Below are positions 3,555-62,960 of a stretch of DNA of 64,000 nt, piece by piece (the first letter of the stretch is position 1; the number at the start of each line of letters is the position of its first letter). The DNA is taken from NCBI GenBank assembly GCA_965207065.1, contig OZ242260.1, forward strand, positions 4,000,001 to 4,064,000, written 5' to 3'. The notes below the pieces were generated by a model. It worked only from the letters and a program-made list of their open reading frames with translations, had not been told where the DNA came from and did not search any database. This DNA is from a bacterium (GTDB lineage Bacteria > UBA8248). The position numbers and the translations under genes were made by a program.

Positions 3555-4969
3555 ACGCGAAAAATTTGCTTGAGGGCGTCCGCGTCGTCAACGTCGGCGT
3601 GGCGTTGTTTGCGGAGAGTATCGCCGCGCAGAACGCCCCCGTGGTGCAGGTGGACTGGCGTCCCCCCGCCGGAGGAGATCCCGAAATGATCGAACACCTC
3701 GACCGACTGTCGGTTTGTGATGCGGCCAACGACGACGCCATCGAGCGCCTTCAGGCCGCAAGACCCGTATGGGTGGACATCGGCTTCGCGATAGAAGACA
3801 TCCCCGGCATGGGCGAGCGCGCCCTCTTGCACGCAGGCCCTCCCATCTCCTGGGAGAGAATGTCGGGTCCCCTGCGCGGCGCGATGGTCGGCGCGGCGCT
3901 TCTCGAGGGCTGGGCGAACGATGCGAAGGCGGCGGAAAAATTGTGCGCGAGCGGGGAAATTTCCTTCGAGCCTTGTCACCACCACTCGACAGTGGGGCCG
4001 ATGGCCGGCGTGGTCTCGCCCTCGATGCCGGTGAGCATCATCGAAAACCGTGCGCCCGAAGAACTCGGAGGCGGCGGGAGGGCCTACTGCACGCTGAACG
4101 AGGGCCTGGGCAAGGTGCTGCGCTACGGGGCGTACTCGCCGGACGTTCTGGCGCGCCTCAGATGGATGTCGGACGAACTCGCCCCCGCACTGCGCGCGGC
4201 ATTGCGAGCCATGCCCGATGGCCTGGACATCAAGAACGTCATCGCGCGCGCCCTCCAGATGGGCGATGAGGCGCACAACCGGAACGTCGCGGCCACTTCG
4301 ACAGTCGCCCGCACCCTTATGCCATACCTCGCGGAGACAGTGAGCGATACGAAGGTCATCACCCGCGTGGCGGAATTTCTTGCGGGCAACGATCACTTCT
4401 TCCTGAATCTCGCGATGCCGGCCGCCAAGGCGAGTCTGGACACCATGGCGGGCATCGAGGGGTGTTCCCTGGTCTACGCCATGTCGCGCAACGGCACGGA
4501 TTTCGGCATCAGGGTCGCCGGTCTGGGAGATGCCTGGTTCACGGCGCCCGCGAAGCATCCCGTGGGGCTGTTCTTCCCCGGCTACTCGCAGGATGACGCC
4601 AACCCGGACATCGGCGATTCCGCCATCATGGAAACGCTCGGCGTCGGCGGCTTCGCCATGGCAGCGGCGCCCGCCATCGTCGAGTTCGTGGGCGGCTCGA
4701 CGGCCGAGGCCTTCCAGGCGACGAACGAGATGTACGGCATCACCTGGGCGAGGAGCCGTGACTACACCCTGCCCGCCCTTGATTTCGCGGGCGTGCCGAC
4801 CGGCATCGACGTGCGCCAGGTGATCGAGACGGGCATCTACCCCGTCATCAACACCGGCATCGCCCACCGCGAGCCGGGCGTCGGACAGATAGGCGCAGGC
4901 GTTCTCCGCGCGCCCGAAGCGCCGTTTCAAAAGGCCTTCGAAGCCCTCGTCGAGAAGTATACGGGGTAG
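3551..4969 (+). CDS. DUF1116 (YahG/YlbE-like) protein
   Basis: LLHAGPP, VGPMAG, NEGLGKVLRYGA, MGDEAHNRN, DIGDSAI, INTGIAH motifs; ATGA overlap with fdrA. Confidence 0.88.
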   Translation: MNAKNLLEGVRVVNVGVALFAESIAAQNAPVVQVDWRPPAGGDPEMIEHLDRLSVCDAANDDAIERLQAARPVWVDIGFAIEDIPGMGERALLHAGPPISWERMSGPLRGAMVGAALLEGWANDAKAAEKLCASGEISFEPCHHHSTVGPMAGVVSPSMPVSIIENRAPEELGGGGRAYCTLNEGLGKVLRYGAYSPDVLARLRWMSDELAPALRAALRAMPDGLDIKNVIARALQMGDEAHNRNVAATSTVARTLMPYLAETVSDTKVITRVAEFLAGNDHFFLNLAMPAAKASLDTMAGIEGCSLVYAMSRNGTDFGIRVAGLGDAWFTAPAKHPVGLFFPGYSQDDANPDIGDSAIMETLGVGGFAMAAAPAIVEFVGGSTAEAFQATNEMYGITWARSRDYTLPALDFAGVPTGIDVRQVIETGIYPVINTGIAHREPGVGQIGAGVLRAPEAPFQKAFEALVEKYTG

Positions 4970-5046
4970 CCTTTCAGGGCTGTTCAGAGCAAGAAAAAAC
5001 ACTCATTTTCGTTCGCGTAAAACGCTCGCTCCTCGCTTGCGTTTGA

Positions 5047-5292
5047 CTATCTTGTTCGCTCGATGAGTTCGCGCAGGGACGCCATAGACTCCTCGTGCCT
5101 GCGGAGCCCTTCTTCTTCCCTGCGGCGGGATTCTGCCATCGCTTCAGCGTGTTTGCGCTCGGAGTCGGCTGCGCGTATCTCGGCGCCATTCGCCATGACG
5201 CGGATGCCGTAGTAGATGAGCGCGAGGCCGCCGTAAGAGGCAATGAGGTTGAGGTAGGCCGCGATGAGGTTGAGGTGTTCATACGTCGTCAT
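5047..5292 (-). CDS. Small membrane-anchored hypothetical protein with charged helical tail
   Basis: MTTYEHLNLIAAYLNLIASYGGLALIYYGIR... hydrophobic N-half, charged C-half; GGAG upstream. Confidence 0.6.
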   Translation of the reverse strand: MTTYEHLNLIAAYLNLIASYGGLALIYYGIRVMANGAEIRAADSERKHAEAMAESRRREEEGLRRHEESMASLRELIERTR

Positions 5293-5440
5293 GCGTATTC
5301 TCCCAGGATATGGGTCCCTCATTTTCCCCGTTAATTGATGACTATAGGAGCCGAACGCGCGTTTCGTCAAATCCTCCTGTAGTGACAGCCCCTCCTCGGG
5401 GCTGTCCCCCTACCCTGACGAACTCCCCCCGTCACCATGC

Positions 5441-5469
5441 TTGACACGGAACCACCCGAGCCATACGAT
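5441..5469 (+). promoter_or_regulatory. Putative sigma70 promoter for the branched-chain-type ABC operon
   Basis: TTGACA-17 bp-TACGAT. Confidence 0.55.
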
Positions 5470-5764
5470 TCATTCCATTCATCATCCTTCATAAAGAACC
5501 GGAATAGAGAAAGCTTCCTGCCATGAACCAGGAGGCGCTTGTGATGGATTCTCCCTTTCTCTTAAGAAGGCTATCCACTGGATACCCGTCCGCAAATTTT
5601 CCGGCGGGCGCTGGCCGTCTTCTGAATCAAGCCCATCCGGATCACCGGCCTCTTCCTTTGCCAACAGGTTCCCGAACGGGAACATTTCTTCTTTTCACCA
5701 AGGGCCGCAACCCCCGAAGCTGCCGGAACTACAGGAGCGGACCCTTCATAATGGAGGAAATACG

Positions 5765-6982
5765 ATGAGCGCACGCATGAAACGAGGGTTTTGCATATTT
5801 ATCGGACTGGCGTTCGCCTTGGGCGTCGTTCTCTCGACCGCGCCTGTAGAGGCGGCCAAGAAACCGCTCACGATCGGAGTGGCGATCGCCCTCACGGGCA
5901 AGGTCTCCAAATCCGGGAAACTCACCCTGCGCGGATACGAGATGTGGCAGCGCGACGTCAACGCGAAAGGAGGGCTCCTGGGCCGGAAAGTGCAGTTCAA
6001 GGTCTATGACGATGAAAGCAACCCCACCACCGGAGCGAAGCTCGTCGAACGCCTCATCAACCGCGACAAGGTGGACATGATCTTCGGGCCGTTCAGCAGT
6101 CCGGTAACCTACGCGACGAGCACGGTCACCGAGAAATACCGCTTTCCGATGATCGCGGGCGGCTCGAGCAGTTCCAAGCCGTTTTCGAGAGGCTACAAAT
6201 ACCTCTTCCAGGTGATGCGGGTGAACAACGACGCCCTGCTCGGCAACCTCTCCCTCTTGAAGGAGAAGGGAGCGAAGACCATCGTCATCATCCACTCGGC
6301 CAGCATCTATCCCTCCTCTCTGGCCAGAGGAGTTCGGAAACTGGGCGAGAAGCTCGGATTCAAGGTGCTCTCGGTCGACAAGTATCCCCCCAAGACGACG
6401 GACTTCACCTCGCTTCTGCTCAAGGCGAAAGGCCTGAACCCCGACGTGCTCTGCCTGTTCGGCTACTATCCCGACGGTCTGGCCATCTCCAAGCAGGTGA
6501 AGGAGCTGGACGTCAACCCCCGCCACCTGAACGTCATGCTCGGCGCTTCCTATGACGAGTACGGCTCCAAGAAAGGCGCCGGCCAGGACGCGAACTACGT
6601 GAGCGGCTACACGGGCTGGGAGCCGTTCATGAACACGCCGGGCAACAAGGAGTTCGTGAAGAAGTATTTCGATCAATACAAGGACGAGCGCTTGATGGAC
6701 TCGCACGTCGCCTACGGCTACCTCGTCGGCGAGGTGATGGAGCGGGCGGTGAACCAGGTCGGCTCGTTCGACCGCGACAAGATACGCGACGCCATCGCTT
6801 CAATGAAGTTCAACAGCCTGATGCCGGGGCAATTCCGGGTGGACCCGAAGTCCGGCATGCAGCTCGGCCACGAGTGGGCGGCCTTCCAGTGGCAAAACGG
6901 CAAGAAGGTCATCGTATGGCCGAAGAACGTCGCCACCGGCAAGTTCGTCTACCCCACGCCCAAGTGGAGAGCAAGAAACTAG
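5765..6982 (+). CDS. ABC transporter substrate-binding protein, branched-chain amino acid (LivJ/K) family
   Basis: Signal peptide; ALTG, VNAKGGLLGRKV, YDDESNP, GPFSS, FQWQNGK motifs. Confidence 0.92.
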   Translation: MSARMKRGFCIFIGLAFALGVVLSTAPVEAAKKPLTIGVAIALTGKVSKSGKLTLRGYEMWQRDVNAKGGLLGRKVQFKVYDDESNPTTGAKLVERLINRDKVDMIFGPFSSPVTYATSTVTEKYRFPMIAGGSSSSKPFSRGYKYLFQVMRVNNDALLGNLSLLKEKGAKTIVIIHSASIYPSSLARGVRKLGEKLGFKVLSVDKYPPKTTDFTSLLLKAKGLNPDVLCLFGYYPDGLAISKQVKELDVNPRHLNVMLGASYDEYGSKKGAGQDANYVSGYTGWEPFMNTPGNKEFVKKYFDQYKDERLMDSHVAYGYLVGEVMERAVNQVGSFDRDKIRDAIASMKFNSLMPGQFRVDPKSGMQLGHEWAAFQWQNGKKVIVWPKNVATGKFVYPTPKWRARN

Positions 6983-14110: not shown

Positions 14111-15343
14111 CTAGAAATACACCTCACCGGGCCTGACGGGCGGCGTCCATTCGCACTCGCCGAACGGGCCGTCGCTTTTCTCCTTGACGTAGGCGATGCG
14201 ATCCTCGTTCACGCTCTCACCTATCAGCGTCCGGTGCAGCCAGTCGAGAATATACTGATGGTTGTCCATGCCGCCCAGGTTCTTCAAGCTCACGAGGGGG
14301 TGGAACTGGTTCTCGAACACCCACATCTCTTTCTTGCAAGTGAGGTCCTCATACACCTCGATGGCGTCCTCGAGCGGGCAGAGGGGGTCGAACTCGCCCG
14401 TCACCAGCAGCGTGGGGCACTGGATCTTGTCCATGTAGCCCTTGACGGTCATGTTGCGCGCCATCTCGTCGAACGCATCCTCATCGTCCATGCCGGCCAT
14501 GTACATGAACACCTGCTTGAAGCGCGGCGAGGACTGCGTGAAGATGGTGTTGTTCGGGTTGAAGCACGCCACGGCGCTCGCCACCGCCGCCGCCCTGTGG
14601 TCGTAGCTCGCCAGGCGAAGCGACCAGAAGCTCCCCATGCTGATGCCGTAGATGCCGATCTTGGTGGGCTCGATTTCCTCGCGCCCCAGGAGGTAGTCCA
14701 TCACCGCGGCGCCCGCGCGCTCGTAGTTGTCACCCACGGCGCGTATTTTCTGGATGTTGGAATTGCCCTGCCCCGGACCGTCCATCGCCAGGACGTGAAA
14801 TCCCCTGTCGGCCGCCACGTTGTGCCGCGCGTGGGGGAAAACCTCCTTGCTCTGGTCCATGCCCGGCACGTAGATGATGCAGGGCGCCTTCCTGCGGTCG
14901 GGCAGCAGGTGCAGGAGGCATGAGATGGTCTTGCCGTCGTCGAAGGGCACCTCGACGCGCTCGATAGGGTAGGAGGCCGTTTCTGAGCGCCTGTCGACCA
15001 CCTCCTTCAGCTTGTTGCACAGATAGATCTTCACGGGGTTGTCGTCATAGAAAATCGGGTGCTGCGCCATGCGGTACGCCTCGATGGCGTGGTCGTAGTG
15101 CTCCGTGGCCGTGGCGTCAAAACCTTCCCGCTGGGCTTTCTTCCCGAGCTTTTCATGCTCCTCGGCGGACTCGCGCCAGACCTTGGGCAACATCTGGTAG
15201 TTGTGGGCGCGCTTGCCCTGGGGGACTTCGAGGTAATCGCGCTCGAAGTTCTGGACGCGGCCCCTCATGTTCAGGGCCAGGTCGAGCATCCACTGCTGGT
15301 TGTCTCTTTCGGTGCGTAGTTTGCGAATCATTTTCCTCTCCAC
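14111..15343 (-). CDS. Alpha/beta hydrolase (FrsA / 2,6-dihydroxy-pseudooxynicotine hydrolase-like)
   Basis: PGMDQSKE, DGPGQG, GISMG nucleophile elbow, TGEFDP, FH triad. Confidence 0.85.
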   Translation of the reverse strand: MERKMIRKLRTERDNQQWMLDLALNMRGRVQNFERDYLEVPQGKRAHNYQMLPKVWRESAEEHEKLGKKAQREGFDATATEHYDHAIEAYRMAQHPIFYDDNPVKIYLCNKLKEVVDRRSETASYPIERVEVPFDDGKTISCLLHLLPDRRKAPCIIYVPGMDQSKEVFPHARHNVAADRGFHVLAMDGPGQGNSNIQKIRAVGDNYERAGAAVMDYLLGREEIEPTKIGIYGISMGSFWSLRLASYDHRAAAVASAVACFNPNNTIFTQSSPRFKQVFMYMAGMDDEDAFDEMARNMTVKGYMDKIQCPTLLVTGEFDPLCPLEDAIEVYEDLTCKKEMWVFENQFHPLVSLKNLGGMDNHQYILDWLHRTLIGESVNEDRIAYVKEKSDGPFGECEWTPPVRPGEVYF

Positions 15344-46778: not shown

Positions 46779-48875
46779 ATGCAAGCCAGTGAAGCAAAAC
46801 TGCTCGAATTCCTCAAAAAATCGGAACAGTTTGTGATCCCGATTTACCAGCGTACCTATTCGTGGACTGAGCGCGAGTGCCGCCAACTTTGGGACGATAT
46901 CCTGCGTGCGGGACGTAATGAGGACATATCGGCGCACTTCATCGGTTCTATCGTATACATCGAGGCCGGGCTTTACCAAATCATTAATCAGTCGCAAATG
47001 CTGGTCATTGATGGCCAGCAACGACTAACTACCGTAATACTCATTATTGAGGCTCTCGCACGCCAAACGGGCGATGCTGAGCCGATTGACGGCTTTTCCG
47101 CGCGAAAACTCCGCAACCGTTACCTGCGCGATCCTGACGAAGATGGCGAAGCTGCCCATAAACTACTCCTCACCCAGACTGACAAACTGACCTTGCTGGC
47201 AATCATGGATCAGAAGCCGCTGCCAGCCGAGCACTCATTGCGTCTCAAAGAGAACTTTGAGTTTTTTGAGAAACAATTGGAGAGACTGGGTATAGATCTG
47301 GAGCCATTGTGTAAGGGGTTAGCTAAACTCATGATTGTGGACGTTTCGCTAAAGCGCGACCAGGACAACCCGCAGTTGATCTTCGAAAGCATGAATTCTA
47401 CTGGCCGAGAACTCAGCCAAGCAGACCTTATCCGTAATTTCATCCTAATGGGGCTGGAACCCCAACACCAGATTCAATTGTACAAGGAATATTGGCGACC
47501 CATGGAAGTCGCATTCGGACAGGAGGCTTATGCCAGACACTTTGATGACTTTATGCGCTATTACCTAACCGTCAAGACCGGCAAACTGCCAAACATCCGC
47601 AAAGTTTACGAAGTGTTTAAGGAATATGCTCGTAACGCAGAAGTGAACAAAATCGGAATAGACGTTATCTTGGCAGATCTTCACAAATTTGCCAGCTATT
47701 ATTGCGCTATGGAATTGGGCCACGAGGAAAACCCTGAATTAAAAGACGCTTTCAAAGACATCCGCGAACTCAAAGCAAACGTCGCCTATCCTTTTTTGCT
47801 GGAAATCTATAATGACTATGCTGAGAAAATAATGTCACCGGAAGAATTGTTGGAGGCCGTACGGCTCGTAGAAAGCTATGTCTTTCGCCGCTCCGTTTGC
47901 GCTATCCCCACAAATTCGATGAACAGGACTTTCGAAACCTTCGGCAAAACTTTAAAAAAAGACCGTTACTTAGAAAGTATCCGGGCGCAGTTCCAACTCA
48001 TGCCATCCTACCGCCGATTCCCTGACGATTCGGAGTTTCGCCGCGAAATTGTGAAGCGAGACCTCTATAACTTCCCCCGACGAAGCTACTGGCTGCGGCG
48101 GCTAGAGAATCACGATCGCAAAGAGCGGGTTCCAGTGCACGAATACACGATTGAGCACATTATGCCACAGAATGATAACCTCTCGAAGGAGTGGCAAGAG
48201 GTGCTCGGTGATGACTGGCGAAGGGTTCAAGAAACTTGGCTTCACACGCTTGGCAATTTGACACTAACTGGCTACAACACCGAGTATAGAGACCATCCCT
48301 TTGCAAAGAAACGAGACATGGAAGGTGGTTTCCGGGAGAGCCCGTTGCGAGTCAACGAGGGGCTGGGTCATCTAGAAACTTGGAATGAAGAGAAGATTCA
48401 GGCACGTGCTAACCGTCTAGCTCACAAAGCTAGTGCCGTCTGGGCATCGCCTTCATTACCTGACGAAATACTTGATACTTATCGGCCGAAGGCTCCAGAG
48501 AAGACTAGCATTTATACAATAGAGAACCATATCCATCTTACAGACGGCTATGCTGTGCGTCCTCTCTTCGAAATTTTTCGTAAATCAGTAACGGCCCTCG
48601 ACCCCTGTGTCACGGAGGAGTTTCTGAAACGTTACGTTTCCTACAAGGCAGAGACCAATTTTGTCGATGTGGAGGCACAGGCCAAACAACTAAAGCTTTG
48701 GCTTAATCTGCAATTCCAAGAGCTTTATGACCCTCGCCGCTTAGCTAGAGACGTGACCAACCTCGGCCACCTAGGCATTGGAGATGTAGAGGTAGCTTTG
48801 CGTACGCCAGAGGAGTTGCCCTACGTGATGAGTCTCGTGCGTCAGGCACTCGAGAAGCAAATGGAAACAGCCTGA
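46779..48875 (+). CDS. GmrSD-type modification-dependent restriction protein (DUF262 + DUF1524/HNH + DUF5655-like tail)
   Basis: IPIYQRTYSW, IDGQQRLTT, IFESMNSTG, TIEHIMPQ, LGNLTLT..N; lower GC. Confidence 0.88.
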   Translation: MQASEAKLLEFLKKSEQFVIPIYQRTYSWTERECRQLWDDILRAGRNEDISAHFIGSIVYIEAGLYQIINQSQMLVIDGQQRLTTVILIIEALARQTGDAEPIDGFSARKLRNRYLRDPDEDGEAAHKLLLTQTDKLTLLAIMDQKPLPAEHSLRLKENFEFFEKQLERLGIDLEPLCKGLAKLMIVDVSLKRDQDNPQLIFESMNSTGRELSQADLIRNFILMGLEPQHQIQLYKEYWRPMEVAFGQEAYARHFDDFMRYYLTVKTGKLPNIRKVYEVFKEYARNAEVNKIGIDVILADLHKFASYYCAMELGHEENPELKDAFKDIRELKANVAYPFLLEIYNDYAEKIMSPEELLEAVRLVESYVFRRSVCAIPTNSMNRTFETFGKTLKKDRYLESIRAQFQLMPSYRRFPDDSEFRREIVKRDLYNFPRRSYWLRRLENHDRKERVPVHEYTIEHIMPQNDNLSKEWQEVLGDDWRRVQETWLHTLGNLTLTGYNTEYRDHPFAKKRDMEGGFRESPLRVNEGLGHLETWNEEKIQARANRLAHKASAVWASPSLPDEILDTYRPKAPEKTSIYTIENHIHLTDGYAVRPLFEIFRKSVTALDPCVTEEFLKRYVSYKAETNFVDVEAQAKQLKLWLNLQFQELYDPRRLARDVTNLGHLGIGDVEVALRTPEELPYVMSLVRQALEKQMETA

Positions 48876-49159: not shown

Positions 49160-49309
49160 GAATTTCCGATAATATCGATAAATTCACGGGGTTATTCGAT
49201 AAATTTCTATAAATTAAATTGTTGGGAAAAGACGCCGCGGAACATGGGCGCAGGGGAATTCTGCCATGGACAGTTATTCTCTCGATAACGGCAAATGCGG
49301 GGAGTTGCG
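49160..49309 (-). repeat. Copy A of conserved non-coding element (inverted relative to copy B)
   Basis: Reverse complement aligns to 54520-54680, with identical 31-bp and 21-bp cores. Confidence 0.9.
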
Positions 49310-49447
49310 GGGGTGAGATTTCCCCGGAGTCGCGAGTCTTGCGGGACGTGGAGATTCGGAGGCGGTGAAAATCCAACAGATTAACGATAGTGACATAATA
49401 CTTGAATTATATGTCGCAAACTATTGTTATTATTGTTATATATATTT

Positions 49448-53178: not shown

Positions 53179-53841
53179 ATGAGCGAGGCGCTTCGCGCCG
53201 AGGCGGAGCCGCTTTGGGAAAAAATTCATGCGCACCCCTTCGTGCGCGGCATCGGAGACGGCACGCTGCCGATGGAGCAGTTCCGCTTCTATATGCGCCA
53301 GGATTATATTTTTTTGAAGGAATACAGCCGCGTCACCGCCCTGGCCGTCGTGAAGGCCCCCGAACTGACGGAGATGGGGCGTTTCGCCGATCTTTTGAAC
53401 GCCACCCTGAATGCCGAGATGGAACTCCACCGGGGGTTCGCGGCGAAATTCGGAATCTCGGCTGATGAGATAGAGGCGACGGAGCCGGCGCCAACGTGTA
53501 AGGGATACACTGATTTCCTGCTCGAGGCGGCCTATGCGGGCACGTTCGGAGAGATCGCCGCCGCCATGCTCCCCTGTCAGTGGGATTACGCCATCATCGG
53601 TGAGTTGCTCGCCGCCAGGGGCATTCCCGAGAACGCGCCGCTCCACGCCGAGTGGATAGAAACCTATGCGTCTGATGAATTCGCGCAACTCGCCCGCTGG
53701 CTGCGCGATATGTTCGATGAGGCCGCATCGACGGCAGGTCCCGCCGAGCGCGAGCGGATGCGCGCGCATTTTCTGATGGGCACGCGGTATGAATACCTCT
53801 TCTGGGATATGAGCTGGAAGATGGAGGAGTGGCCCCTGTAG
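53179..53841 (+). CDS. tenA: Thiaminase II
   Basis: HPFV, FRFYMRQD, PCQWDY (catalytic Cys), WIETY, EYLFW. Confidence 0.92.
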   Translation: MSEALRAEAEPLWEKIHAHPFVRGIGDGTLPMEQFRFYMRQDYIFLKEYSRVTALAVVKAPELTEMGRFADLLNATLNAEMELHRGFAAKFGISADEIEATEPAPTCKGYTDFLLEAAYAGTFGEIAAAMLPCQWDYAIIGELLAARGIPENAPLHAEWIETYASDEFAQLARWLRDMFDEAASTAGPAERERMRAHFLMGTRYEYLFWDMSWKMEEWPL

Positions 53842-53869
53842 CCCCCAGGCCCGCCTGTCGAGAGAATAT

Positions 53870-54403
53870 ATGAGCCCCGGAACGCGAACAGACATGCCCA
53901 ATCCTCCGCGATGCGCCTGGGCGGAGGGCGACCCGGTGATGGAGAAATACCACGACGAGGAATGGGGGTTTCCCGTCCGTACGACCCGGAAACACTTTGA
54001 GCAACTCACGCTGGAAATCTTTCAGGCGGGCCTCTCCTGGCGCACGATACTGCACAAGCGCGAGGCGTTCAGAATTGAGTTCGCGCGGTTCTCGCCCGAG
54101 AAGGTCGCCCGTTTCACCGGGAAGGACATCGAGCGCATCCTCGGGAACCCGGGCGTGGTGCGGAATCGCAAGAAAATCGAGGCGGCCATCGAGAACGCCG
54201 GGAGATTCCTCGCCATCCAGAAAGAACACGGCTCGTTCAACCGCTATCTCGCCTCCCTGCCGGACGATCTTCCCGCATTGCAAAAGATATTCCGCGCGGA
54301 ATTCGCCTTCATGGGACCCAAAATCGCCGAAGCCTACCTCGAGAGCGTCGGCAGGATACCCGCACCCCACGACCCGCGCTGCTGGCGTTTTGTAAAAACA
54401 TGA
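53870..54403 (+). CDS. tag: DNA-3-methyladenine glycosylase I (start may be 53894)
   Basis: RCAW...YHDEEWG, FQAGLSW, RNRKKIEA, HDPRC. Confidence 0.92.
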   Translation: MSPGTRTDMPNPPRCAWAEGDPVMEKYHDEEWGFPVRTTRKHFEQLTLEIFQAGLSWRTILHKREAFRIEFARFSPEKVARFTGKDIERILGNPGVVRNRKKIEAAIENAGRFLAIQKEHGSFNRYLASLPDDLPALQKIFRAEFAFMGPKIAEAYLESVGRIPAPHDPRCWRFVKT

Positions 54404-54413
54404 TTCCATTTGA

Positions 54414-54426
54414 TATCAATTAGTTA
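54414..54426 (+). promoter_or_regulatory. IHF consensus match
   Basis: TATCAATTAGTTA matches WATCAANNNNTTR exactly. Confidence 0.45.
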
Positions 54427-54519
54427 GCGATTGACAATTAAAGTGTTTCCCGCCTTTCCCCCCGCCCTTCCGCCTGTGCTCTTTTCTGAAGACCCCGGGG
54501 CCGCAAGCCGCCCTTGCCG

Positions 54520-54680
54520 CGCAAATCCCCGCATTTGCCGTTATCGGGAGATTCGCCGTCCGTGGCAGAATTTTCCTGCGCCCGGATTCGGCGGCGTCAA
54601 TTCCCAAGGATTTTAATTGTCGGAAATTTATCGAATAACCCCGTGAATTTATCTGTATTTATCTATATTTTCGGAAATTC
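54520..54680 (+). repeat. Copy B of conserved non-coding element
   Basis: Contains tccccgcatttgccgttatcg and gaaatttatcgaataaccccgtgaatttatc, inverted at 49160-49309. Confidence 0.9.
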
Positions 54681-54901
54681 CGGTTCGTCTCATATCACGG
54701 GAAACAGCGCGGACGATACCATGCGCGCACCGCTCCACCGCCGACCCCGAGGCCGCCATCGAACGCTGCCTCGAAACCCGTAACCGCGATCCCCGGCCGT
54801 TTCACCGGACAAAGGCCGGCCGGCGGCGTCCTGGCTTCCACCGAACGCTTCCGCCGAAGGACGCCCGGCGTCCGGGAGAAAGTGGAACAACAACTCCTGA
54901 A

Positions 54902-55169
54902 TCAGGACGCTAGATCGAGAGCCAGCCGCCGTCGATCGCCAGCGTGTGGCCGGTCACCATCGAGGAGGCGGGGCTCGCGAGGTAGAGGATGCCGCCGGCG
55001 ATTTCCTCGGGCTCGCCGAGCCGGCCGAGCGGCGTGCGCGCCCTGATCTCGTCTTCGAGCCCGGGCCGGCGCTGACGCAGGTCGGCGCCGAGATTGGTGT
55101 AGAAGAAGGTCGGCGCGATGGCGTTCACCCGGATGCCCCGGCCCGCCCATTCGACGGCGAGCGAGCGGG
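54902..55169 (-). pseudogene. Duplicated 3' end of the SDR gene (direct repeat of 61533-61800)
   Basis: 268-bp alignment with 6 mismatches; no 5' part of the gene. Confidence 0.93.
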
Positions 55170-58100
55170 GGCGTAAGAACCTCCATGAATTCCTTCTCTG
55201 GAGTCTCTCCGGAAACCTCGGCGTTAATACCGAACTACAAGGACCAATCGGGTAATTTTAATTGCCTTATCAGCTAGTGACGGCATATATAGTGTATGAC
55301 TTTGTGGCACCTGAACATTTCTTGCCATAGCCTGAAGGTGTCAATCGAATCGGGTTAACTCCAACATGACATTCCAAAATTGGATATGTATTATTAATCG
55401 AAATGAGACAGTTCCATAATGACAACTTGCTAAGGTGATGCAGGTAAATTTTGCATGTAGATAGTAAAGAGGATTAACTAAAGTGAGAGACGTGATCGAT
55501 ATAAACGAGCACATCATCAATCAGATTGCCGACTTCCGTCGGTTGCTTCTTGGGCTAACGCTGCGTAATCCACTACTATCCTGTCCACATGGCCAAAATG
55601 TTAAAACTCAAGTCCGTATTGTCGACGAATTGCCGGATGCAGTATTCGATCGCCTCACAAGTGACGGTGAGTTCGAGTTTGAGCCGTTGCCGGAACCTCG
55701 GAACACCCCCGACGACGAGGACGATGAAGAGTTCAAGCAGGCACTTTCAGACTACAAGAGAAGCAGTCTGGCTCACCAACAAGCGCTCAAGCAGCTTAAA
55801 CAATCAAACCAGGGAACCGAGCCCCTTGAAAAACTGGAACGCGAGGCACGCGATTATGTCCGCCTCTTGTTGGAACGAGGCAAGTGGGAGCCCGAGCAAG
55901 GTCTTTCGCAAGAGGCCTTGGCGCGGCGCCACGGAATCAATCCGTCTTATGAGCTGCCGTCCTCTGATCGGGAAGAACAAATCGAGCGGCACCATGACGA
56001 CACTCTGCAAACGCTGTTCTCCGAGCAGGACCTGATCCCACGGCTGCGGAGGCTCCGAGAGCGTGCCCGGTCGGATCTGCGGGACCGTGGCGTGGGCACT
56101 TTGTTTGCCGCTTTTGGGTTCCTCGAATGGTACGAGGACGACGCTTCACAAAGGGTGCACTTGGCACCGCTGGTCCTCGTACCAGTAGAACTAGACCGAG
56201 CGTCTCGCAACAACCGTCAAGTCTACAAACTTCGCGCGACTGACGAAAAACCGAAGAGCAATGCCACGCTCGCGGAATATCTGAACCAGAAATTTGAAGT
56301 AGAGCTGCCTGAACTGACCGACGATGATTCACCGGAGAGTTATTTCAAGAAAATCGAAGACTTTGTGTCGAAATTCCAGCGTTGGCGCATGCGCCGCTTC
56401 CTGACGATCCACATTTTTACGGACGCCAAGCTTGCCATATACACCGATCTCGACTGGGATGCCTGGCCAGATGATGACACGTTGTCGAAGCATGATGGCA
56501 TACGCCAGTTGATGTCCGAGACCGGTGTTGCGGATGTTTCCTACGTGGAAGGCCACGATATCGACGGAGACCAAACCGCGTTTCGATTTCCGACGCTTAT
56601 CTGCGATGCTGACTCATCTCAGCATAGCGCAATTGTTGATGCCCTAGATAAAGGCAACCTGACAATATACGGACCTCCCGGAACCGGCAAGTCGCAAACA
56701 ATTACAAACCTCATTGCCGCAGCCTTGGATGCCGGAAAGACTGTGTTGTTTGTAGCGGAAAAGCTGACAGCGCTTGATGTTGTCCACAAGAAATTGTGCG
56801 AAGCGGGACTTGATCGTTTTTGCTTTGTTCTGCATTCGGGCGGGATTCGTAGAGAAGCTGTTCGTCGAGCTTTACGCAAGCGCGTAGACGCGATGCCCCC
56901 GGATTTCGACCAAGCCACTTATGAAAATCTCAGGAATGACTGGGAGGCTCAAAGGAATGCGTTGAAGCTCTATGCATCGATCATGGGAGATCGAATAGGC
57001 GAACTTGGAATCACCGTTCACGAAGTCCTGTGGGAAGAAATTCGGAGGCGGGAAGCGGGTAAATCCCTTTCGCCGAACATCGCAATGATTAGGCTACCGA
57101 AAACAGACGCCCTAGCACTCACAGCGAACGGTCTTCAAGGAACGAAACGAAAGATAGGCGACCTCGTGTCAGCGTATGAGGCGCTCGGTGAGTCGGGGAC
57201 ACGACCATGGCGCGGAATCATGGGCGCGAACCTTCCACCAACTGAGGTTGATCCAACACGCCATCGACTTGCCACTTGGCGGGAAGCAGTCAGCAGTCTC
57301 GCGGTAAAAGCGGCATGTTTGTCAGATACTATTGATCCGATGAGTCTCGATGGTATCGATCAAGTCATCTACGCAACAATGTTACTGGTGGATTACGCCG
57401 GATTGGGCTGTAAGTACGACCTTGCGACGCTGGCTTCCAAGGATACCCAACGCGCGGTGATAGCAGCCAACGACGCCGAGACGAGGGCATCAAATTACGC
57501 CCGTACAATATGCGAAAGATTCAGTCTCGACCCGGCTGAACTGTCGGCTACGGTCGAGGGTTTTCGCTCGATAGCGGATGAAGCATCCGCACTGGACTGC
57601 GCCGATCAGACAGTGGGTAAGCTAGCCAGCTTAGCTGAATCAAACCGCCTTAAGGCTGACGAACTTGTTCAAGTAAACTCCGCCATCGAATGTCTGTGCC
57701 GTCTGTTCGATATTGCCGAGCCTGAAGCCGGATCGGTCCAAACTATCGCGCAAGCCATGACCGTCATAAGACAGACTACTCGTTCGCTCTTGCTCTCAAG
57801 AAAGGGTGAATGGGTTGAAGAAGGTGCCCATATGTATTTAGCGGAACTGGAGGCTTCGATAAAGAAAAAGCGCCTGGAAGGAGAGACTCTTGACAAGCAG
57901 TTCAACATGAAGGAGCTCCCTAGCTCATCTGAACTTCGAGTAGCCGGTCAAAGACTGAAACAGTCGCGTACTCCAAGGTGGTTGTCTTCACAGTCAAGAC
58001 GCGCCGTAAAACTATATCGTGGGCTCGCTCGCGAGCGCAGAAAGGTCGACACCGAGACAATGGCTTATGATCTTCTGCGCTTGTCCGAGTACGCGGACGA

Positions 58101-61100
58101 GGTTGCGTCACTACAAGTAGATGAAAAGGGGAATGCGCTTTTTAGCGACCGCTGGCAGGGGGTAGATACCGATTTTCGCGAAGCCATGGAGGTGGCTGAC
58201 TGGGCCGCTAAGATAGCCAGGGACTTCTCAGGTATCGGGGAAGGCCGCGCCGAAATTCGTCATAAGCTGCTTCACGGCGGTGTGGATATCCTGGATGAGA
58301 TTATCCACATACTAAATGGCCTTGGGGACTTGCGCGTCGAAAACCACTACCCGACAGTGGGCGGTCCAATTGGCGACCCAAAAGACTTGATGGAGCGCGC
58401 TCTACGAATCGATACGCTTGCTGATCTTTCCAAGAAAGCTGGTTTGCCAGAAGATTTTCAGTTGAGTGACACCAATGCAGTCGCTGACTTAATCGCTCAT
58501 TACCGTCAAGAGCATGCGGCCGCGCAGGAAATTCCGGTTCCACGCCTGGACGGTGGTACAGCGACGAATGATGAAACTGCAGGTAACCTCGCAAAACTCT
58601 GCTCTACCATCCATGAAAAAGAGCTAACCGCAGAAGTTTGGCGCGCGGCCAATAAGGCGTATGCCGAGTATGGACCGGACAAGACCGGCGAATGGCTTGA
58701 GAATCTCCAGAACGCAGTCGTTGAGGAAGAAGAAGCATGGGACGCCTGGGCTTCCCCACTTGAAGTGAATGAAACAAAATTTTTCGACGGCGTCGAACGA
58801 AACGCTATACCATTGGACGTCATGCGTCAGCGAGCCGATCAGTGCCTAGATGGTGGGAACACAATTATTGAATGGTGCCGTTACCGACGCATTTGGGACG
58901 ACATCCTTTATACCGAGGCGAAGCCGCTTCTGGAATCCTTCGAACAAAGCAAAATCGAAGTTGGGCAGTTACCCATCGCTTACGAAATGGCCCTTTACCG
59001 GTCTCTAGCCTCCATCATTTTTCATAAGTATCCTAGGCTTGAACAACTTACGGGCGAGCAACTTCATAATCACAAGCAAGCCTATTGTGAAACTGAAGAG
59101 AACCTCCAGAAATTGGAATGCGCGCGTATTGCCAATGAGCTTCATCATCGCCCTGTGGAGCGTGGAATATCGACAGGGCCGCCAAGTACTCTCACGGAAC
59201 GAGCGCTTATCAATCATCAACTAGACGTGCGTGGTGCGAAAGTATCGCCCCGCGACTTGATAAATCGGTCGGGCAAGGCCCTCCGTCAGCTCAAACCGTG
59301 TTTCATGATGTCGCCCACGACCGTGTCAGAGTTACTACCGAGAGAATCGGAACTTTTTGATCTGGTCGTGATCGATGAGGCGTCACAAATGCTGCCTGCG
59401 GACGCCTTGGGGGCCATCGCCCGCGCGAGAAGCGCAGTGATTGTCGGAGATCCGCAACAGCTTCCGCCGACGGCATTCTTTCAAGGCGTTCTGGCCGGAA
59501 CTGACGGAGACGATGGGCTCGCGACAGCCTCGGAATCAATCCTTGATCTCGCGATGTCGGCTTGGCGCCCACATCGACATCTGCGATGGCACTATCGCTC
59601 TCGCCACAGTGCGTTGATCCAGTTCTCGAATTTCAAATTCTACGATAACCGATTGCTCGTATTCCCCGGCCCTGATGAAGGCGCATCTGATGACGGAGTC
59701 AATTTCCGTTATATCGACAATGGAATCTATTTGGATGACCGAACAAACATTCTTGAGGCAGAGCGTATTGTAGAGGCGGTGCTCGCTTTCACGGCAGATA
59801 GAGATAACTGGAAGCGCAGCCTCGCTGTCGTCACTATGAATCAACCTCAGCGCGACCTCTTGGATGAGATGTTGGATAAGGAGGCTTCGGAAAACGATTC
59901 GCTCGCCGGTTACATTCGCCGATGGGAAAACGAACTCGAACCGCTCACGGTTAAGAATCTGGAAAGTGTTCAGGGTGACGAGCGTGACGTTATCTTCATC
60001 TCGACCGTTTACGGACCCCGAACCCCGGGAGGCCCTGTGTCGCAGCAGTTTGGCCCAATAACACAGCAAGGTGGGGAGCGGCGTCTGAACGTTTTGTTCA
60101 CGCGTGCCCGTTGGCGTATCGACCTTTTTTCTTCGATGCGCGCCAACGATATTCACCCGCATCCTGGAGCGCATCGCGGGATAGAAATTTTGCGCGATTA
60201 TCTGGAATACGCAGCGACTGGCCGTATAGAATCCGGCACATCAACGGGTAAGCCAACCGAGAGCCCATTTGAGGAGCATGTCAAGGAGAAGCTGGAGGTG
60301 GCGGGATACGACATCACACCGCAGGTGGGCGTCGCTGGCTACCGCATCGACCTTGGTGTCAAGCACACCGACTACCCGGACGGCTTTCTGCTAGGTGTCG
60401 AATGCGACGGCGCAACCTACCACTCCGCAAAATCTGTTCGTGACCGCGACCGACTGCGCGAAGCCGTTCTTCGCGGCCTCGGTTGGGACATCTACCGCAT
60501 ATGGTCCACCGACTGGTTCAGTGACACCGGCCGAGAGATGGAAAGACTGCTTGACTATCTTCAGAGAAAATTAACCGAGTTACGAGAAGGACGCGAGACC
60601 GGGGAACCCGAGTTGGAGGGTACCGTTGTCGAAGAAGTTGAAGTCCTGGAAGAAGTCAGGGACATCACGGGTGAGGCGATAGTAGACAGGGATGTACCTG
60701 AGGACGCTTCCGATAGATTGCTGGAACCCGAGATTGTTGAGGTTGGCGATACCGTCTTTTATCGTAGAAATGTAAATGACGCGGAAGTTCGCAAAGTGGT
60801 CATCGTCGCCGGACCTAACGATCCGGACAAGGGCATGATCAACGAAACCAAACCATTCGCCCGGGCCGTACTTGGACGATGCCGTGGCGAAGTAGTTACC
60901 GTCAATCAACAAAACAGTCATGCCGAGCTTGTGATCGAGAGAGTTTTCAAGGGGCAGTTGCCCGCTGGTGATAAGATACTGGATTCCGGGCAACCTGAGT
61001 TATTTCCTAGTGGAAACGGCATACGTGCATATCACGGTTGGCATGGCAGCGCTCCGGATCCGAGAAGTATATCGACTAAGGATTTGGCTAACACCCTTAG

Positions 61101-61532
61101 AGAGATAATTGAAACAGAAGGGCCGATACTCACCGATCGCCTCTACCGTGTTTATATGCGGTCAAGCAGATTGGGAAGAGCTGGTCGCCAGGTCAGAACA
61201 AGTCTAAATCAAGCTCTGAAGAGACTTGAAAATCAGGGTATCGTTACCATCGAAAAGAAAGGTCCGGGTAGTGGCTATGCGGAGGCGACAATCCGAATGG
61301 CGGATAGTCCGGCCGTTATCATGCGAGACCGTGGCGACCGAAATTTGGATGAAATCCCGATAGATGAGCTGGCCCAAGTATATCGTCTAATCCGGTCTGA
61401 GAGTCACGGTGGTGATGAGGATTCGATATTTCGCGAGGTTTTAGCTCGCTATGGACTTACTCGCATGACCACTAACGTTCGAGGACGATTGAAGGAAGCC
61501 GCGCAACAGATGTAGAAATTTGTTACAGCTAC
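55170..61532. mobile_element. Single-gene low-GC cassette between 268-bp direct repeats
   Basis: Composition shift at both repeat junctions; one large ORF; no integrase. Confidence 0.75.
55483..61515 (+). CDS. Hhe-like defence protein: DUF4011 + SF1 (UPF1-like) helicase + Vsr/MTES_1575-like nuclease + GreA-C-like + DUF3320-like domains
   Basis: LLGLTLRNPLL; GPPGTGKSQT; DEASQ; GDPQQLPP; HYRS; VQGDERD; RLNV..TRAR; ESPFE...YRID...ECDG.TYH...LGW.I.RIWSTDW; IIETEGPI. Confidence 0.88.
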   Translation: MRDVIDINEHIINQIADFRRLLLGLTLRNPLLSCPHGQNVKTQVRIVDELPDAVFDRLTSDGEFEFEPLPEPRNTPDDEDDEEFKQALSDYKRSSLAHQQALKQLKQSNQGTEPLEKLEREARDYVRLLLERGKWEPEQGLSQEALARRHGINPSYELPSSDREEQIERHHDDTLQTLFSEQDLIPRLRRLRERARSDLRDRGVGTLFAAFGFLEWYEDDASQRVHLAPLVLVPVELDRASRNNRQVYKLRATDEKPKSNATLAEYLNQKFEVELPELTDDDSPESYFKKIEDFVSKFQRWRMRRFLTIHIFTDAKLAIYTDLDWDAWPDDDTLSKHDGIRQLMSETGVADVSYVEGHDIDGDQTAFRFPTLICDADSSQHSAIVDALDKGNLTIYGPPGTGKSQTITNLIAAALDAGKTVLFVAEKLTALDVVHKKLCEAGLDRFCFVLHSGGIRREAVRRALRKRVDAMPPDFDQATYENLRNDWEAQRNALKLYASIMGDRIGELGITVHEVLWEEIRRREAGKSLSPNIAMIRLPKTDALALTANGLQGTKRKIGDLVSAYEALGESGTRPWRGIMGANLPPTEVDPTRHRLATWREAVSSLAVKAACLSDTIDPMSLDGIDQVIYATMLLVDYAGLGCKYDLATLASKDTQRAVIAANDAETRASNYARTICERFSLDPAELSATVEGFRSIADEASALDCADQTVGKLASLAESNRLKADELVQVNSAIECLCRLFDIAEPEAGSVQTIAQAMTVIRQTTRSLLLSRKGEWVEEGAHMYLAELEASIKKKRLEGETLDKQFNMKELPSSSELRVAGQRLKQSRTPRWLSSQSRRAVKLYRGLARERRKVDTETMAYDLLRLSEYADEVASLQVDEKGNALFSDRWQGVDTDFREAMEVADWAAKIARDFSGIGEGRAEIRHKLLHGGVDILDEIIHILNGLGDLRVENHYPTVGGPIGDPKDLMERALRIDTLADLSKKAGLPEDFQLSDTNAVADLIAHYRQEHAAAQEIPVPRLDGGTATNDETAGNLAKLCSTIHEKELTAEVWRAANKAYAEYGPDKTGEWLENLQNAVVEEEEAWDAWASPLEVNETKFFDGVERNAIPLDVMRQRADQCLDGGNTIIEWCRYRRIWDDILYTEAKPLLESFEQSKIEVGQLPIAYEMALYRSLASIIFHKYPRLEQLTGEQLHNHKQAYCETEENLQKLECARIANELHHRPVERGISTGPPSTLTERALINHQLDVRGAKVSPRDLINRSGKALRQLKPCFMMSPTTVSELLPRESELFDLVVIDEASQMLPADALGAIARARSAVIVGDPQQLPPTAFFQGVLAGTDGDDGLATASESILDLAMSAWRPHRHLRWHYRSRHSALIQFSNFKFYDNRLLVFPGPDEGASDDGVNFRYIDNGIYLDDRTNILEAERIVEAVLAFTADRDNWKRSLAVVTMNQPQRDLLDEMLDKEASENDSLAGYIRRWENELEPLTVKNLESVQGDERDVIFISTVYGPRTPGGPVSQQFGPITQQGGERRLNVLFTRARWRIDLFSSMRANDIHPHPGAHRGIEILRDYLEYAATGRIESGTSTGKPTESPFEEHVKEKLEVAGYDITPQVGVAGYRIDLGVKHTDYPDGFLLGVECDGATYHSAKSVRDRDRLREAVLRGLGWDIYRIWSTDWFSDTGREMERLLDYLQRKLTELREGRETGEPELEGTVVEEVEVLEEVRDITGEAIVDRDVPEDASDRLLEPEIVEVGDTVFYRRNVNDAEVRKVVIVAGPNDPDKGMINETKPFARAVLGRCRGEVVTVNQQNSHAELVIERVFKGQLPAGDKILDSGQPELFPSGNGIRAYHGWHGSAPDPRSISTKDLANTLREIIETEGPILTDRLYRVYMRSSRLGRAGRQVRTSLNQALKRLENQGIVTIEKKGPGSGYAEATIRMADSPAVIMRDRGDRNLDEIPIDELAQVYRLIRSESHGGDEDSIFREVLARYGLTRMTTNVRGRLKEAAQQM

Positions 61533-61540
61533 TCAGGACG

Positions 61541-62335
61541 CTAGATCGAGAGCCAGCCGCCGTCGATCGCCAGCGTGTGGCCGGTCACCATCGAGGAGGC
61601 GGGGCTCGCGAGATAGATGATGCCTCCGGCGATTTCCTCGGGCTCGCCGAGCCGGCCGAGCGGCGTGCGCGCCCTGATCTCGTCCTCGAGCCCGGGCCGG
61701 CGCTGACGCAGGTCGGCGCCGAGATTGGTGTAGAAGAAGGTCGGCGCGATGGCGTTCACCCGGATGCCACGGTCCGCCCATTCGACGGCGAGCGAGCGGG
61801 TCATGTTGACGATCGCCCCCTTGGTCGCCTGATAGGGGATGTGGGGGACCATCGCGTTCGCCCGAAACCCCATGATCGAGGCGATCGAGACGATCCGCCC
61901 CTCCCCCTGGGCCAGCATGTGCTTCGCCGCCCGGCGCGCGCAGACGAACGGGGCGGTCATGTTGACCTCGACCACCTCGTCCCAGTCCTCGTCGGGAAAT
62001 TGCTCGGTCGGGCCGGGCCGCGCGATGCCCGCATTGTTGATCAGGATGTGGAGCCCGCCGAACCGCTCGGCCGCCTCGTCGATCACGGTGTCGATGCGCT
62101 TGCGGTCGGCGACGTCGAGCCGCCAGGACTCGGCGACCCCGCCGGCCTCGCGGATCTCCGCCGCGACCCTCCCGGCCGCCGCCGGGTCGATATCGGTGAC
62201 CGCGACATGCGCCCCCGCGCCGGCAAGCGCTATCGCGGCGATTCGTCCCAGCCCGCCGCCCGCCCCGGTGACCAGCGCGCTGTTGCCGTCGATGCGAAAC
62301 AGCGCCTCGATCGAAACCTTCTCGAAACCCGCCAT
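61541..62335 (-). CDS. Short-chain dehydrogenase/reductase (gluconate 5-dehydrogenase/KduD-like)
   Basis: TGAGGGLG, NNAG, YQATK, VNAIAP, DGG. Confidence 0.92.
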   Translation of the reverse strand: MAGFEKVSIEALFRIDGNSALVTGAGGGLGRIAAIALAGAGAHVAVTDIDPAAAGRVAAEIREAGGVAESWRLDVADRKRIDTVIDEAAERFGGLHILINNAGIARPGPTEQFPDEDWDEVVEVNMTAPFVCARRAAKHMLAQGEGRIVSIASIMGFRANAMVPHIPYQATKGAIVNMTRSLAVEWADRGIRVNAIAPTFFYTNLGADLRQRRPGLEDEIRARTPLGRLGEPEEIAGGIIYLASPASSMVTGHTLAIDGGWLSI

Positions 62336-62960
62336 GGCCGCCTCCCCTGAGACCCCTCCGGTTGCGCGTCCCCCCGCCGCTCACCCGCGCGGTCAGGCAT
62401 AGCGGGATTTCCGCCCATGCACGGAACTTCAGGGCCATACCGCCTCCCACCCTGCCATTTCGCTATCGATCGAGCAAGAAGCAACCTGATGAGAAACGGA
62501 CGTGATGCCCGATTCGGCAGGGAGCGCGGAGCCTGGTCCGGAAAGTCGCGATATCTGTGCGATCGTGTTTTCATTCTCCCGTCGGGTGAAATTTTCACGC
62601 GAATGCGTATGTACAACACGCTATGAACATACCGGCCCAATAAGCCGAACAGGCAGGCGCCAGGCTTCGTCGCGCGTCGCCATCCTTCGAGGGTACGCGC
62701 GCCACCCGCTCTTTCCCGAACCGCCCGGCTCCGCAACCGGGTTCCGTCCTCCCGCGCTGTCGTTTGCTTCGGCGGGGTCCCGGTGGTACCCTGCGGTATC
62801 CATTCGGGCTTTATATTCCATCGGGCGGGGCGCAACGAACCGCCCGGCGTTTGAATCGTGGCGTGAGAGTCGTCGGCTCGCGATGCCGCCCGTTTGGACT
62901 CCCTCGGGGATGGCCCGCACAGCATGACGGTCCGAGCGCACCCATCAGGGAGGAACAGAA

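Follow-up and report, generated by a model that had tools for sequence, protein, structure and literature searches.

How can a single defence gene, with no recombinase of its own, come to lie between two copies of the same gene end? This question is raised by a locus in a 64,000-nucleotide stretch of a bacterial genome of the UBA8248 lineage (G000:C1:4000001-4064000; this whole stretch is called the window), in which the 3′ end of a gene for a short-chain dehydrogenase/reductase (SDR) occurs as copy A at 54902-55169 and again as copy B at 61533-61800. The genome, G000, is complete and consists of one contig of 4,476,866 bp (4.48 Mb). A first-pass annotation of the window had described the two copies as 268-bp direct repeats, made of the SDR 3′ end and 8 bp beyond it, and had listed six differences between them, four synonymous and two changing an amino acid, with neither an indel nor a stop. 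It had further seen 6363 bp of lower-GC DNA between the copies, with one Hhe-like gene and no recombinase, and had proposed that this cassette arrived with its own copy of the gene end, integrated by homologous crossover, and thereby formed an excisable or amplifiable defence module docking in a metabolic gene. The description of the sequence stands in full and the proposal in part, and the data point to an insertion that was probably free of a recombinase, anchored by homology at the SDR 3′ end, and derived from a closely related lineage. The locus is a further case of a known but little-studied process, insertion with long target duplication, and three sister loci of similar build were found in the same genome.

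By repeat search, the two copies are direct repeats of 268 nt with 98% identity at a spacing of 6631 nt, and they form the sole long direct-repeat family in the last 24 kb of the window. Their alignment gives 262 identical positions out of 268, with six mismatches and no indels. Full-length matches to the repeat occur at only two places in the genome (E-values of 2.4e-137 and 3.2e-129); the remaining three of the five matches are 38-57 nt long, at 77-87% identity. Translated in the SDR frame, four differences are synonymous third-position changes (CGG/CGT, GAA/GAG, GGC/GGA, and TAC/TAT), two are replacements (Gly/Asp and Leu/Ile), and no stop codon appears ahead of the natural one. The outer boundary of the repeat, position 54902, is the centre of a small palindrome just past the SDR stop, of which copy B retains the first half only.

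The native arrangement could be deduced from related genomes, as the first-pass annotation had suggested, by comparing the window with 18-kb stretches around the SDR orthologue from ten genomes of the same genus, where SDR orthologues show 86-93% nucleotide identity. All ten relatives have a single SDR end and no cassette, and none has a second SDR tail, so that the second paralogue in relatives, which would have undone the first proposal, is absent. In each of the ten, homology extends from copy A into the left flank, 11-179 nt beyond 54902, and homology to copy B ends at 61533 (nine relatives) or 61538 (one relative) and continues on the other side into the gene. From this pattern of homology, the native order is gene, tail, and flank, and the order in the window is gene, tail B, cassette, tail A, and flank.

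Independent sequence data came from public runs, 17 of which contain part of 53500-62800. Four were examined (X2, X14, X16, and X17) in the form of contigs, not reads; the runs containing the flanks are mostly labelled sponge metagenomes. One contig of X14 covers 55108-61562 without a single difference and leads from copy A, identified by the letters private to it at 55138 and 55142, across the whole cassette into copy B. A contig of X16, which belongs to a different study, covers 53500-57266, again with no difference, and joins the flank, copy A, and the cassette. In X17, another sample of the study that produced X14, a contig spanning 61074-61723 joins the cassette to copy B with three differing letters; the parts of the stretch left uncovered in X16 and X17 are uninformative. 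In X2, labelled a sponge metagenome, the left flank is present and differs at 41 of 1151 nt (~96% identical), the SDR tail and body are covered at depths of 45-69, and the depth over the cassette is zero in 15 consecutive bins. A close population with an empty site therefore exists. Some contig joints with sides of 21-28 nt, such as one from 54954 to 62138 in X14, were attributed to the SDR genes of other organisms.

The six differences between the copies can be polarized by taking the ten relatives as outgroups. At five of the six sites copy A agrees with every one of these relatives, and copy B does so at one. The derived states of copy B fall into two tight clusters, one at 61769 and 61773 and the other at 61613, 61618, and 61625 (sense positions 28 and 32, and 176, 183, and 188, respectively), and both replacements are included in them. 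A search for a paralogous donor of these clusters found no matching tract of at least 16 nt elsewhere in the genome, and ectopic gene conversion from a paralogue was rejected on this ground. Both copies also have common states that are absent from all ten relatives, and for this reason both are derived from this species or from its closest kin. If the fragment were simply a dead, decaying duplicate, the opposite polarity would be expected, which disfavours this explanation. The balance of four synonymous differences to two replacements, taken with the derived state of copy B at five of the six sites, favours the earlier suggestion that the copies represent two alleles rather than a decaying duplicate. 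In X17, the differing letters comprise one A>G and two T>G changes, as expected from the copy A letters at 61613, 61618, and 61625; this run-level tally suggests that copy B of X17 carries the ancestral letters at the three sites. The tail of the intact gene thus seems to be polymorphic among cassette-bearing strains.

The first-pass annotation had also advised a scan for other gene-3′-end duplications around low-GC genes, and three more were found. A self-comparison of the genome gave 131 direct-repeat pairs of at least 60 nt lying 0.4-40 kb apart, of which 26 enclose DNA at least 5 GC points below their flanks. Inner open reading frames (ORFs) were annotated for six of these 26 pairs, namely the SDR, penicillin-binding protein (PBP), MalK, and cobalamin adenosyltransferase (CobAT) pairs and two others, L037 and L042. 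Four of the six, the SDR pair included, combine a defence cargo with the duplicated tail of an upstream core gene on the same strand. The PBP insert (5719 bp, GC 0.473) holds the genes of a DRT-UG6 system, with matches to RT_UG6 (1196 bits), the RT-associated nitrilase (393 bits), and the RT-associated DnaG-like protein (364 bits). The MalK insert of 3262 bp contains SoFic (396 bits) and a 335-aa ORF without a family, and the adenosyltransferase insert of 1468 bp contains PDC-M57B (277 bits) and a weak match to PDC-M57A/DUF6884. At the last locus the repeat stops 5 nt short of the stop codon, so that the last codons of the intact gene are supplied by the insert.

At two of the sister loci, the intergenic DNA next to the copies carries a mark of origin. 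At the PBP locus, ~75 nt after the intact copy match the native downstream DNA of six relatives (G011, G008, G022, G003, G012, and G014), and the fragment leads into a different downstream sequence, as in G002 and G013, toward pyruvate carboxylase. At the MalK locus, 175 nt after the intact copy match the downstream DNA in G018, which is without SoFic; a phosphofructokinase gene adjoins the MalK-like gene in G003, G005, G011, and G012, as it does beside the G000 fragment. Because the intact PBP and MalK copies carry the intergenic DNA of one lineage and the fragments that of another, the gene tail and the cargo would have come together from a relative. These two-lineage junctions are direct evidence for such a joint arrival. 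The polarity at the three sister loci is mixed: at the PBP locus the intact copy is derived at ~9 of 15 sites and the fragment at 3-4, at the adenosyltransferase locus the intact copy has three derived states and the fragment one, and the MalK locus shows the reverse. A sliding-window comparison upstream of the PBP repeat with 15 relatives gave no usable signal of a donor tract, all of them being ~10% away.

The adenosyltransferase locus adds information on age. Three other species (G012, G013, and G002) share both the cassette and the fragment, with identical boundaries; in G015 the cassette is present but the fragment is missing, and the closest relative, G014, has an empty site. Between G000 and these species, identity is 76-81% for the PDC-M57 cassette genes and 89-95% for the core flanks, and on these values the insertion appears to be an old one. 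The two repeat copies differ at 5-6 of 153 sites within a genome and at 7-20 sites between genomes, and the fragments of different genomes differ from one another at 8-13 sites. Because the copies within a genome are closer than those between genomes, the repeats appear to be recombinationally active, through either ongoing exchange or renewed insertion.

No sign of a dedicated enzyme was seen at any of the four loci. Recombinase and transposase families are absent among the 14 Pfam families matched by the 2010-aa protein of the SDR cassette, the protein covered by the Pfam scan, and the other ORFs of at least 60 aa between the repeats all lie inside or antisense to its gene. The scanned ORFs of the three sister inserts include no recombinase-like ORF. 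Tyrosine recombinases gave 54 hits in the genome, some of them in trios of neighbouring hits, and every hit is more than 40 kb distant from each of the four loci; those nearest to the SDR insert are more than 160 kb away. Inspection of the junction sequences by eye revealed no motif common to the ends of the four cassettes, and in the window ARAGORN found no tRNA gene and Rfam no match that could mark an RNA target.

Among the other annotated pairs, L037 (G000:C1:4096873-4099268; 3873-6268) consists of 403-nt direct repeats with 93.8% identity, made of the tail of a ribbon-helix-helix ORF. They enclose 1591 bp (GC 0.473) with an ORF of 270 aa for which neither Pfam nor PADLOC gave a family match; this pair may be a fifth instance, with a candidate defence cargo of no known family. 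The L042 pair (64 nt, 83%), which encloses an ankyrin protein and HpaB, is doubtful. A guess made by eye, that pieces of hsdS lie at the ends of the SoFic cassette, was dropped since Pfam found nothing in the three short ORFs concerned.

Table 1. Features of the SDR locus (window positions) and location of the three sister loci (genome positions, with locus positions in brackets).
Feature	Position	Strand	Remarks
Small palindrome just past the SDR stop, terminator-like	54895-54907	-	Pattern scan, weak: 2 found vs 0.9 expected
Copy A, displaced SDR 3′ piece	54902-55169	-	Last 86 codons, stop, and 8 nt; no 5′ part; contiguous with native downstream flank
AT-rich cassette leader	55170-55482	+	GC 0.44 across 55250-55749
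Sigma-70-like site in leader	55366-55394	+	Consensus match only, 10/12; 1 found vs 0.6 expected in shuffles
Single cargo gene, 2010 aa	55483-61515	+	Pfam: DUF4011, split superfamily 1 (SF1) helicase AAA_11/AAA_12, MTES_1575 nuclease, DUF3320
17-nt tail from cargo stop to copy B	61516-61532	.	Sequence
Copy B, 3′ end of intact SDR gene and 8 nt past its stop	61533-61800	-	Carries 5 of 6 derived states
Intact SDR gene, 264 aa	61541-62335	-	adh_short_C2 E 8.3e-63, adh_short E 6.5e-55
PBP locus	G000:C1:2505801-2511919 (L036 3801-9919)		200-nt tail of class A penicillin-binding protein; copies 92.5% identical
MalK locus	G000:C1:1399657-1403080 (L041 3657-7080)		81-nt tail of MalK-like ABC ATPase, 90%; runs 8 nt past stop
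Cobalamin adenosyltransferase locus	G000:C1:853431-855204 (L038 3431-5204)		153-nt tail, 96.7%

The content of the SDR cassette agrees with the earlier description by GC, Pfam, and PADLOC alike. The GC of the 6363 bp of inner DNA is 0.523, compared to 0.599 and 0.650 in the 5-kb flanks and 0.595 in the genome, and the non-coding DNA on the two sides of the cargo gene amounts to only 313 nt and 17 nt. The cargo protein matches DUF4011 (E-value of 7e-37), AAA_11 (9e-20), AAA_12 (1e-13), MTES_1575 (2e-34), and DUF3320 (9e-06). In PADLOC it scores higher with PDC-S37 (1146 bits) than with Hhe (759 bits in three stretches, the best one covering residues 1121-1728 only). Hhe, known as PADLOC model PDLC02194 and as a PGAP product name on plasmid homologues, has the same order of DUF4011, SF1 helicase, nuclease, and DUF3320 in one large protein; however, the cargo is only 33-41% identical to named Hhe proteins across 50-71% of its length. 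The cargo can be classified from these matches as a distant member of the Hhe/PDC-S37 group of candidate anti-phage proteins.

Within the genus, the cargo gene is found only in G000 among 23 genomes, two others having partial matches of 37-40% identity. Its closest relatives in the collection of species representatives are 62%, 60%, and 47% identical and occur in metagenome-assembled genomes (MAGs) labelled Nitrospirales, Alphaproteobacteria, and Poribacteria. The gene is, judged by this distribution, foreign to the genus. A search of plasmids gave 583 records, all below 60% identity, including homologues of 33-41% identity of which some are annotated Hhe; a search of phages gave four weak records, and no relatives of the cargo protein were found in metagenome contigs. 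An SDR gene lies beside the cargo homologue at none of three genome-contig loci (47-62% identity). In the alphaproteobacterial MAG with the 60%-identical homologue (L034), a 113-nt direct repeat with 79% identity, at 322-434 and 14850-14962, encloses 14.5 kb that include the homologue.

A few other features of the window and the genome were recorded. A second low-GC gene, at 46779-48875 on the plus strand of the window, encodes a restriction protein of the GmrSD type (DUF262/DUF1524) that has DUF5655 as its tail (PADLOC Orf5, 640 bits); it sits between an amidohydrolase and an EamA transporter gene, and no flanking direct repeat of at least 30 nt was found there. A dispersed intergenic repeat of ~165 nt, with 66 matches in the genome, occurs in the window at 54500-54700 and, inverted, at 49171-49312. 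In run X2 it reaches ~17 times the depth of the flanks, and further copies are found close to the PBP-DRT locus and to other repeat pairs. The inverted copies in the window bracket 49.3-54.5 kb, with genes for EamA, cytochrome c, an EPSP-synthase-like protein, TenA, and Tag. Near the start of the contig, two block copies of ~35 kb (G000:C1:10134-44000 and 65417-96700), 85-99% identical and ~55 kb apart, both carry tyrosine-recombinase genes, and they may be two related integrative elements or one that was duplicated.

Insertion with long target duplication was reportedly described by Nobusato et al. in 2000 for restriction-modification (RM) systems. Furuta, Abe and Kobayashi (2010; PMC2853133) recognize such events by an insert shorter than 20 kb, a duplication longer than 30 bp, the absence of any other mobile element, and repeats for which a comparison genome has a single aligning target; the repeats in their tables measure 46-423 bp, and several overlap the 3′ end of a gene. 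They suggest restriction cutting as the driver and propose a virus-like cycle of insertion, amplification, and release, for which, by the authors' own account, there is direct evidence of amplification only. The SDR locus has direct repeats of 268 nt, a single-copy empty site in ten of ten relatives and in X2, and an insert of 6363 bp with one gene and no mobile-element gene; R and M homologues are absent from the insert, whose cargo is a single helicase-nuclease. The defence unit of less than 20 kb without a mobility gene, the repeats at gene 3′ ends, and the deviant GC of the insert are alike, whereas the cargos found here (Hhe/PDC-S37-like, DRT-UG6, SoFic, and PDC-M57) are not RM systems, and the copies can be polarized and, at two loci, assigned to two lineages. 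The phrase "docking in a metabolic gene" in the first-pass annotation is too specific for a pattern that is general to insertion with long target duplication. Of seven papers since 2016 with the phrase "long target duplication", none has a title on non-RM defence systems, and Hochhauser et al. (2023) yielded no passage on repeats. Since the cargos include SoFic, in which no nuclease domain was found, and a reverse transcriptase system, restriction cutting cannot be the common cause.

Several other known arrangements resemble the locus in part. Phage 21 and e14 insert in icd with an element-borne tail that completes the gene, with mostly silent differences, and leave the displaced tail as a pseudogene, as do other elements whose integrases act at the 3′ end of a protein gene. 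The SDR locus is built alike, with a replacement tail that completes the gene and a displaced tail that stays, but those elements encode an integrase next to their attachment (att) site, and here none is present in 55170-61532 or linked to it. For a cis-mobilizable element (CIME), an autonomous element with the same att site would be expected, and the genome contains only the two full repeat copies. An integron cassette is not indicated either, given the 17 nt after the cargo stop and the lack of an integron integrase nearby among the PF00589 hits, the attC models not having been run. In the minimal mobile elements of Neisseria and in core defence hotspots, variable cargo without mobility genes is likewise exchanged between conserved genes by host recombination, but this exchange needs flanking homology on both sides and leaves no duplication.

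It was observed directly that the gene tail is duplicated, that relatives have an empty site, that a recombinase is absent, that the differences have a polarity, and that the pattern recurs. On these observations we base the following account of the insertion, in which we have somewhat more belief than doubt. The incoming DNA would have brought along a copy of the final 268 nt of the SDR locus, and the anchor would have been RecA-type homologous pairing in the SDR tail, with neither integrase nor transposase. After entry, one copy would complete the gene, and the other would remain as a 5′-truncated remnant on the native downstream flank. Two forms of the incoming DNA are conceivable. In one, a linear fragment consisting of the gene tail, donor intergenic DNA, and cargo would pair with the recipient gene, and its far end would join illegitimately at a point inside that gene upstream of the stop codon; the donor would then have supplied the whole tail of the intact gene, and the recipient the fragment. 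In the other, a circle with tail and cargo would enter by a single Campbell-type crossover and leave hybrid copies. The differences at the SDR locus fit the linear form as they stand; the circle would agree with them only for a crossover within the first 27 nt or the final 80 nt of the repeat. The product observed is given equally well by both. Later recombination may have taken place between the two copies. The position of the duplications at gene tails could be explained by a selection filter, because only duplicated pieces with a gene end leave the gene intact.

Both forms have precedents. Campbell integration of circular DNA by a single crossover places the insert between directly repeated copies of the homologous sequence, both of them part donor and part recipient, and is reversible and amplifiable; the product is identical, but a circle is needed and the cassette has no replication or circularization function. 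Homology-facilitated illegitimate recombination in transformation (de Vries and Wackernagel in 2002, Prudhomme and others in 2002, Meier and Wackernagel in 2003) is alike in its mode of anchoring, but the events are said to be mostly insertion-deletions, compared to a duplicated tail here. As outlined in the introduction of PMC6382021, RecA integrates the foreign DNA through one homologous anchor and the other end joins at microhomology near the anchor, with no enzyme of a mobile element. Collectively, the part of the first-pass proposal in which the cassette arrived with its own copy of the gene end gains from the insertion at a single-copy SDR end and from the two-lineage junctions of the sister loci, and its homologous crossover would be only one of the two forms of entry.

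Several observations weigh against this account of a homology-anchored insertion. The six differences are few, and a split of five to one is not significant alone; some of them, as the X17 data imply, may reflect later allelic exchange rather than a signature of entry. The polarity at the MalK locus is reversed, with the fragment derived at three clear sites and the intact copy at one. Three of the four cassettes end 17-38 nt past the last stop, which is tidier than random breakpoints. No donor in which the cassette adjoins an SDR gene turned up, and the initial capture beside the SDR gene is thus unexplained. Finally, the excisable or amplifiable module of the first-pass annotation is unproven: the depths in X14 are 17.7 for the cassette contig and 17.9 for the left-flank contig (10.8 for the right-flank contig, 61874-62800), and neither an excised-circle joint nor an empty-site joint is listed in a cassette-bearing sample, although contigs built from 31-mers cannot exclude one across a 268-nt repeat.

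The alternative that deserves most attention, although we think it unlikely, is a true duplication of the target at insertion, in which both copies derive from the recipient and the six differences reflect later mutation or allelic recombination in the intact gene. Such a duplication might arise from widely staggered breaks, from the joining of sister chromosomes broken 268 nt apart, or from template switching that captured foreign DNA. It is the reading implied by the name and the original interpretation of the class (PMC2853133), and the ancestral letters suggested for copy B of X17 at three sites would agree with copies that started out identical. The two clusters of derived sites could be two imported allelic patches, and the junction at the centre of a palindrome is a plausible break site. 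What this explanation leaves unexplained is the 75-175 nt of intergenic DNA from another lineage next to the intact PBP and MalK copies, and the foreign DNA would need a separate source and route of entry. Moreover, Ku was not detected in the genome, a finding that, like the presence of a ComEC homologue, decides nothing on mechanism. A site-specific recombinase acting in trans, on a cassette that would be a non-autonomous, CIME-like or satellite-like element with an att site including the SDR tail, appears quite improbable. An intact gene, an element, and a displaced tail are the product of an integrase-type reaction, the clear derived states all lie in the element-adjacent copy, as expected for a crossover at the 5′ edge of the repeat, and the genome offers 54 tyrosine-recombinase hits. 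However, the insert neither contains nor adjoins a recombinase gene, a third repeat copy that would mark a helper element with the same att site is missing from the genome, and there is no tRNA or other usual target; furthermore, four gene tails without a common end motif would require four specificities.

The same product could also be left by a larger prophage or integrative and conjugative element that has lost its integrase and the rest of its genes, so that the defence gene remains between attL and attR. Defence genes often ride on such elements, and direct repeats of gene tails are typical att scars; nevertheless, we consider this origin very unlikely, as merely 313 nt and 17 nt of non-coding DNA surround the gene, no pseudogene remains are seen, and an equally tidy loss would be needed at four loci. 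An assembly artefact joining two strains would account for copies that differ as those of two strains would, in a single-contig assembly with 4.95% estimated contamination. This is the least credible explanation, because independent short-read contigs of two studies carry the junction of copy A and cassette without mismatch, the X14 and X17 contigs carry the junction of cassette and copy B, and the PDC-M57 locus of the same build occurs in the assemblies of three other species.

The homology-anchored insertion proposed here is of interest because a single genome shows it four times, each time with an unrelated defence cargo other than RM, and because two of the loci carry evidence for two lineages. 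The loci bear on the way in which defence systems spread outside recognizable mobile elements, and they show that long target duplication is not tied to restriction enzymes. They also offer handles on the mechanism, in the form of alleles that can be polarized, donor-type intergenic DNA on one copy, and repeats that evolve in concert. Should the route prove general, low-GC inserts between duplicated gene tails could reveal new defence genes, for which the 270-aa ORF at G000:C1:4096873-4099268 is a candidate. As a wider idea, which we put forward only tentatively and with considerable doubt, defence cassettes might carry a portable homology arm, the tail of a core gene, by which close relatives acquire them through host recombination alone; the gene would be rebuilt in the process, and the direct repeats left behind would then allow loss, conversion, amplification, and release of circles; the four loci would be instances of it. 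If this were true, it would constitute a general, enzyme-free route of mobility that explains defence genes located behind core genes at sites free of mobile genetic elements, and it would match the virus-like cycle put forward for RM systems by Kobayashi and colleagues.

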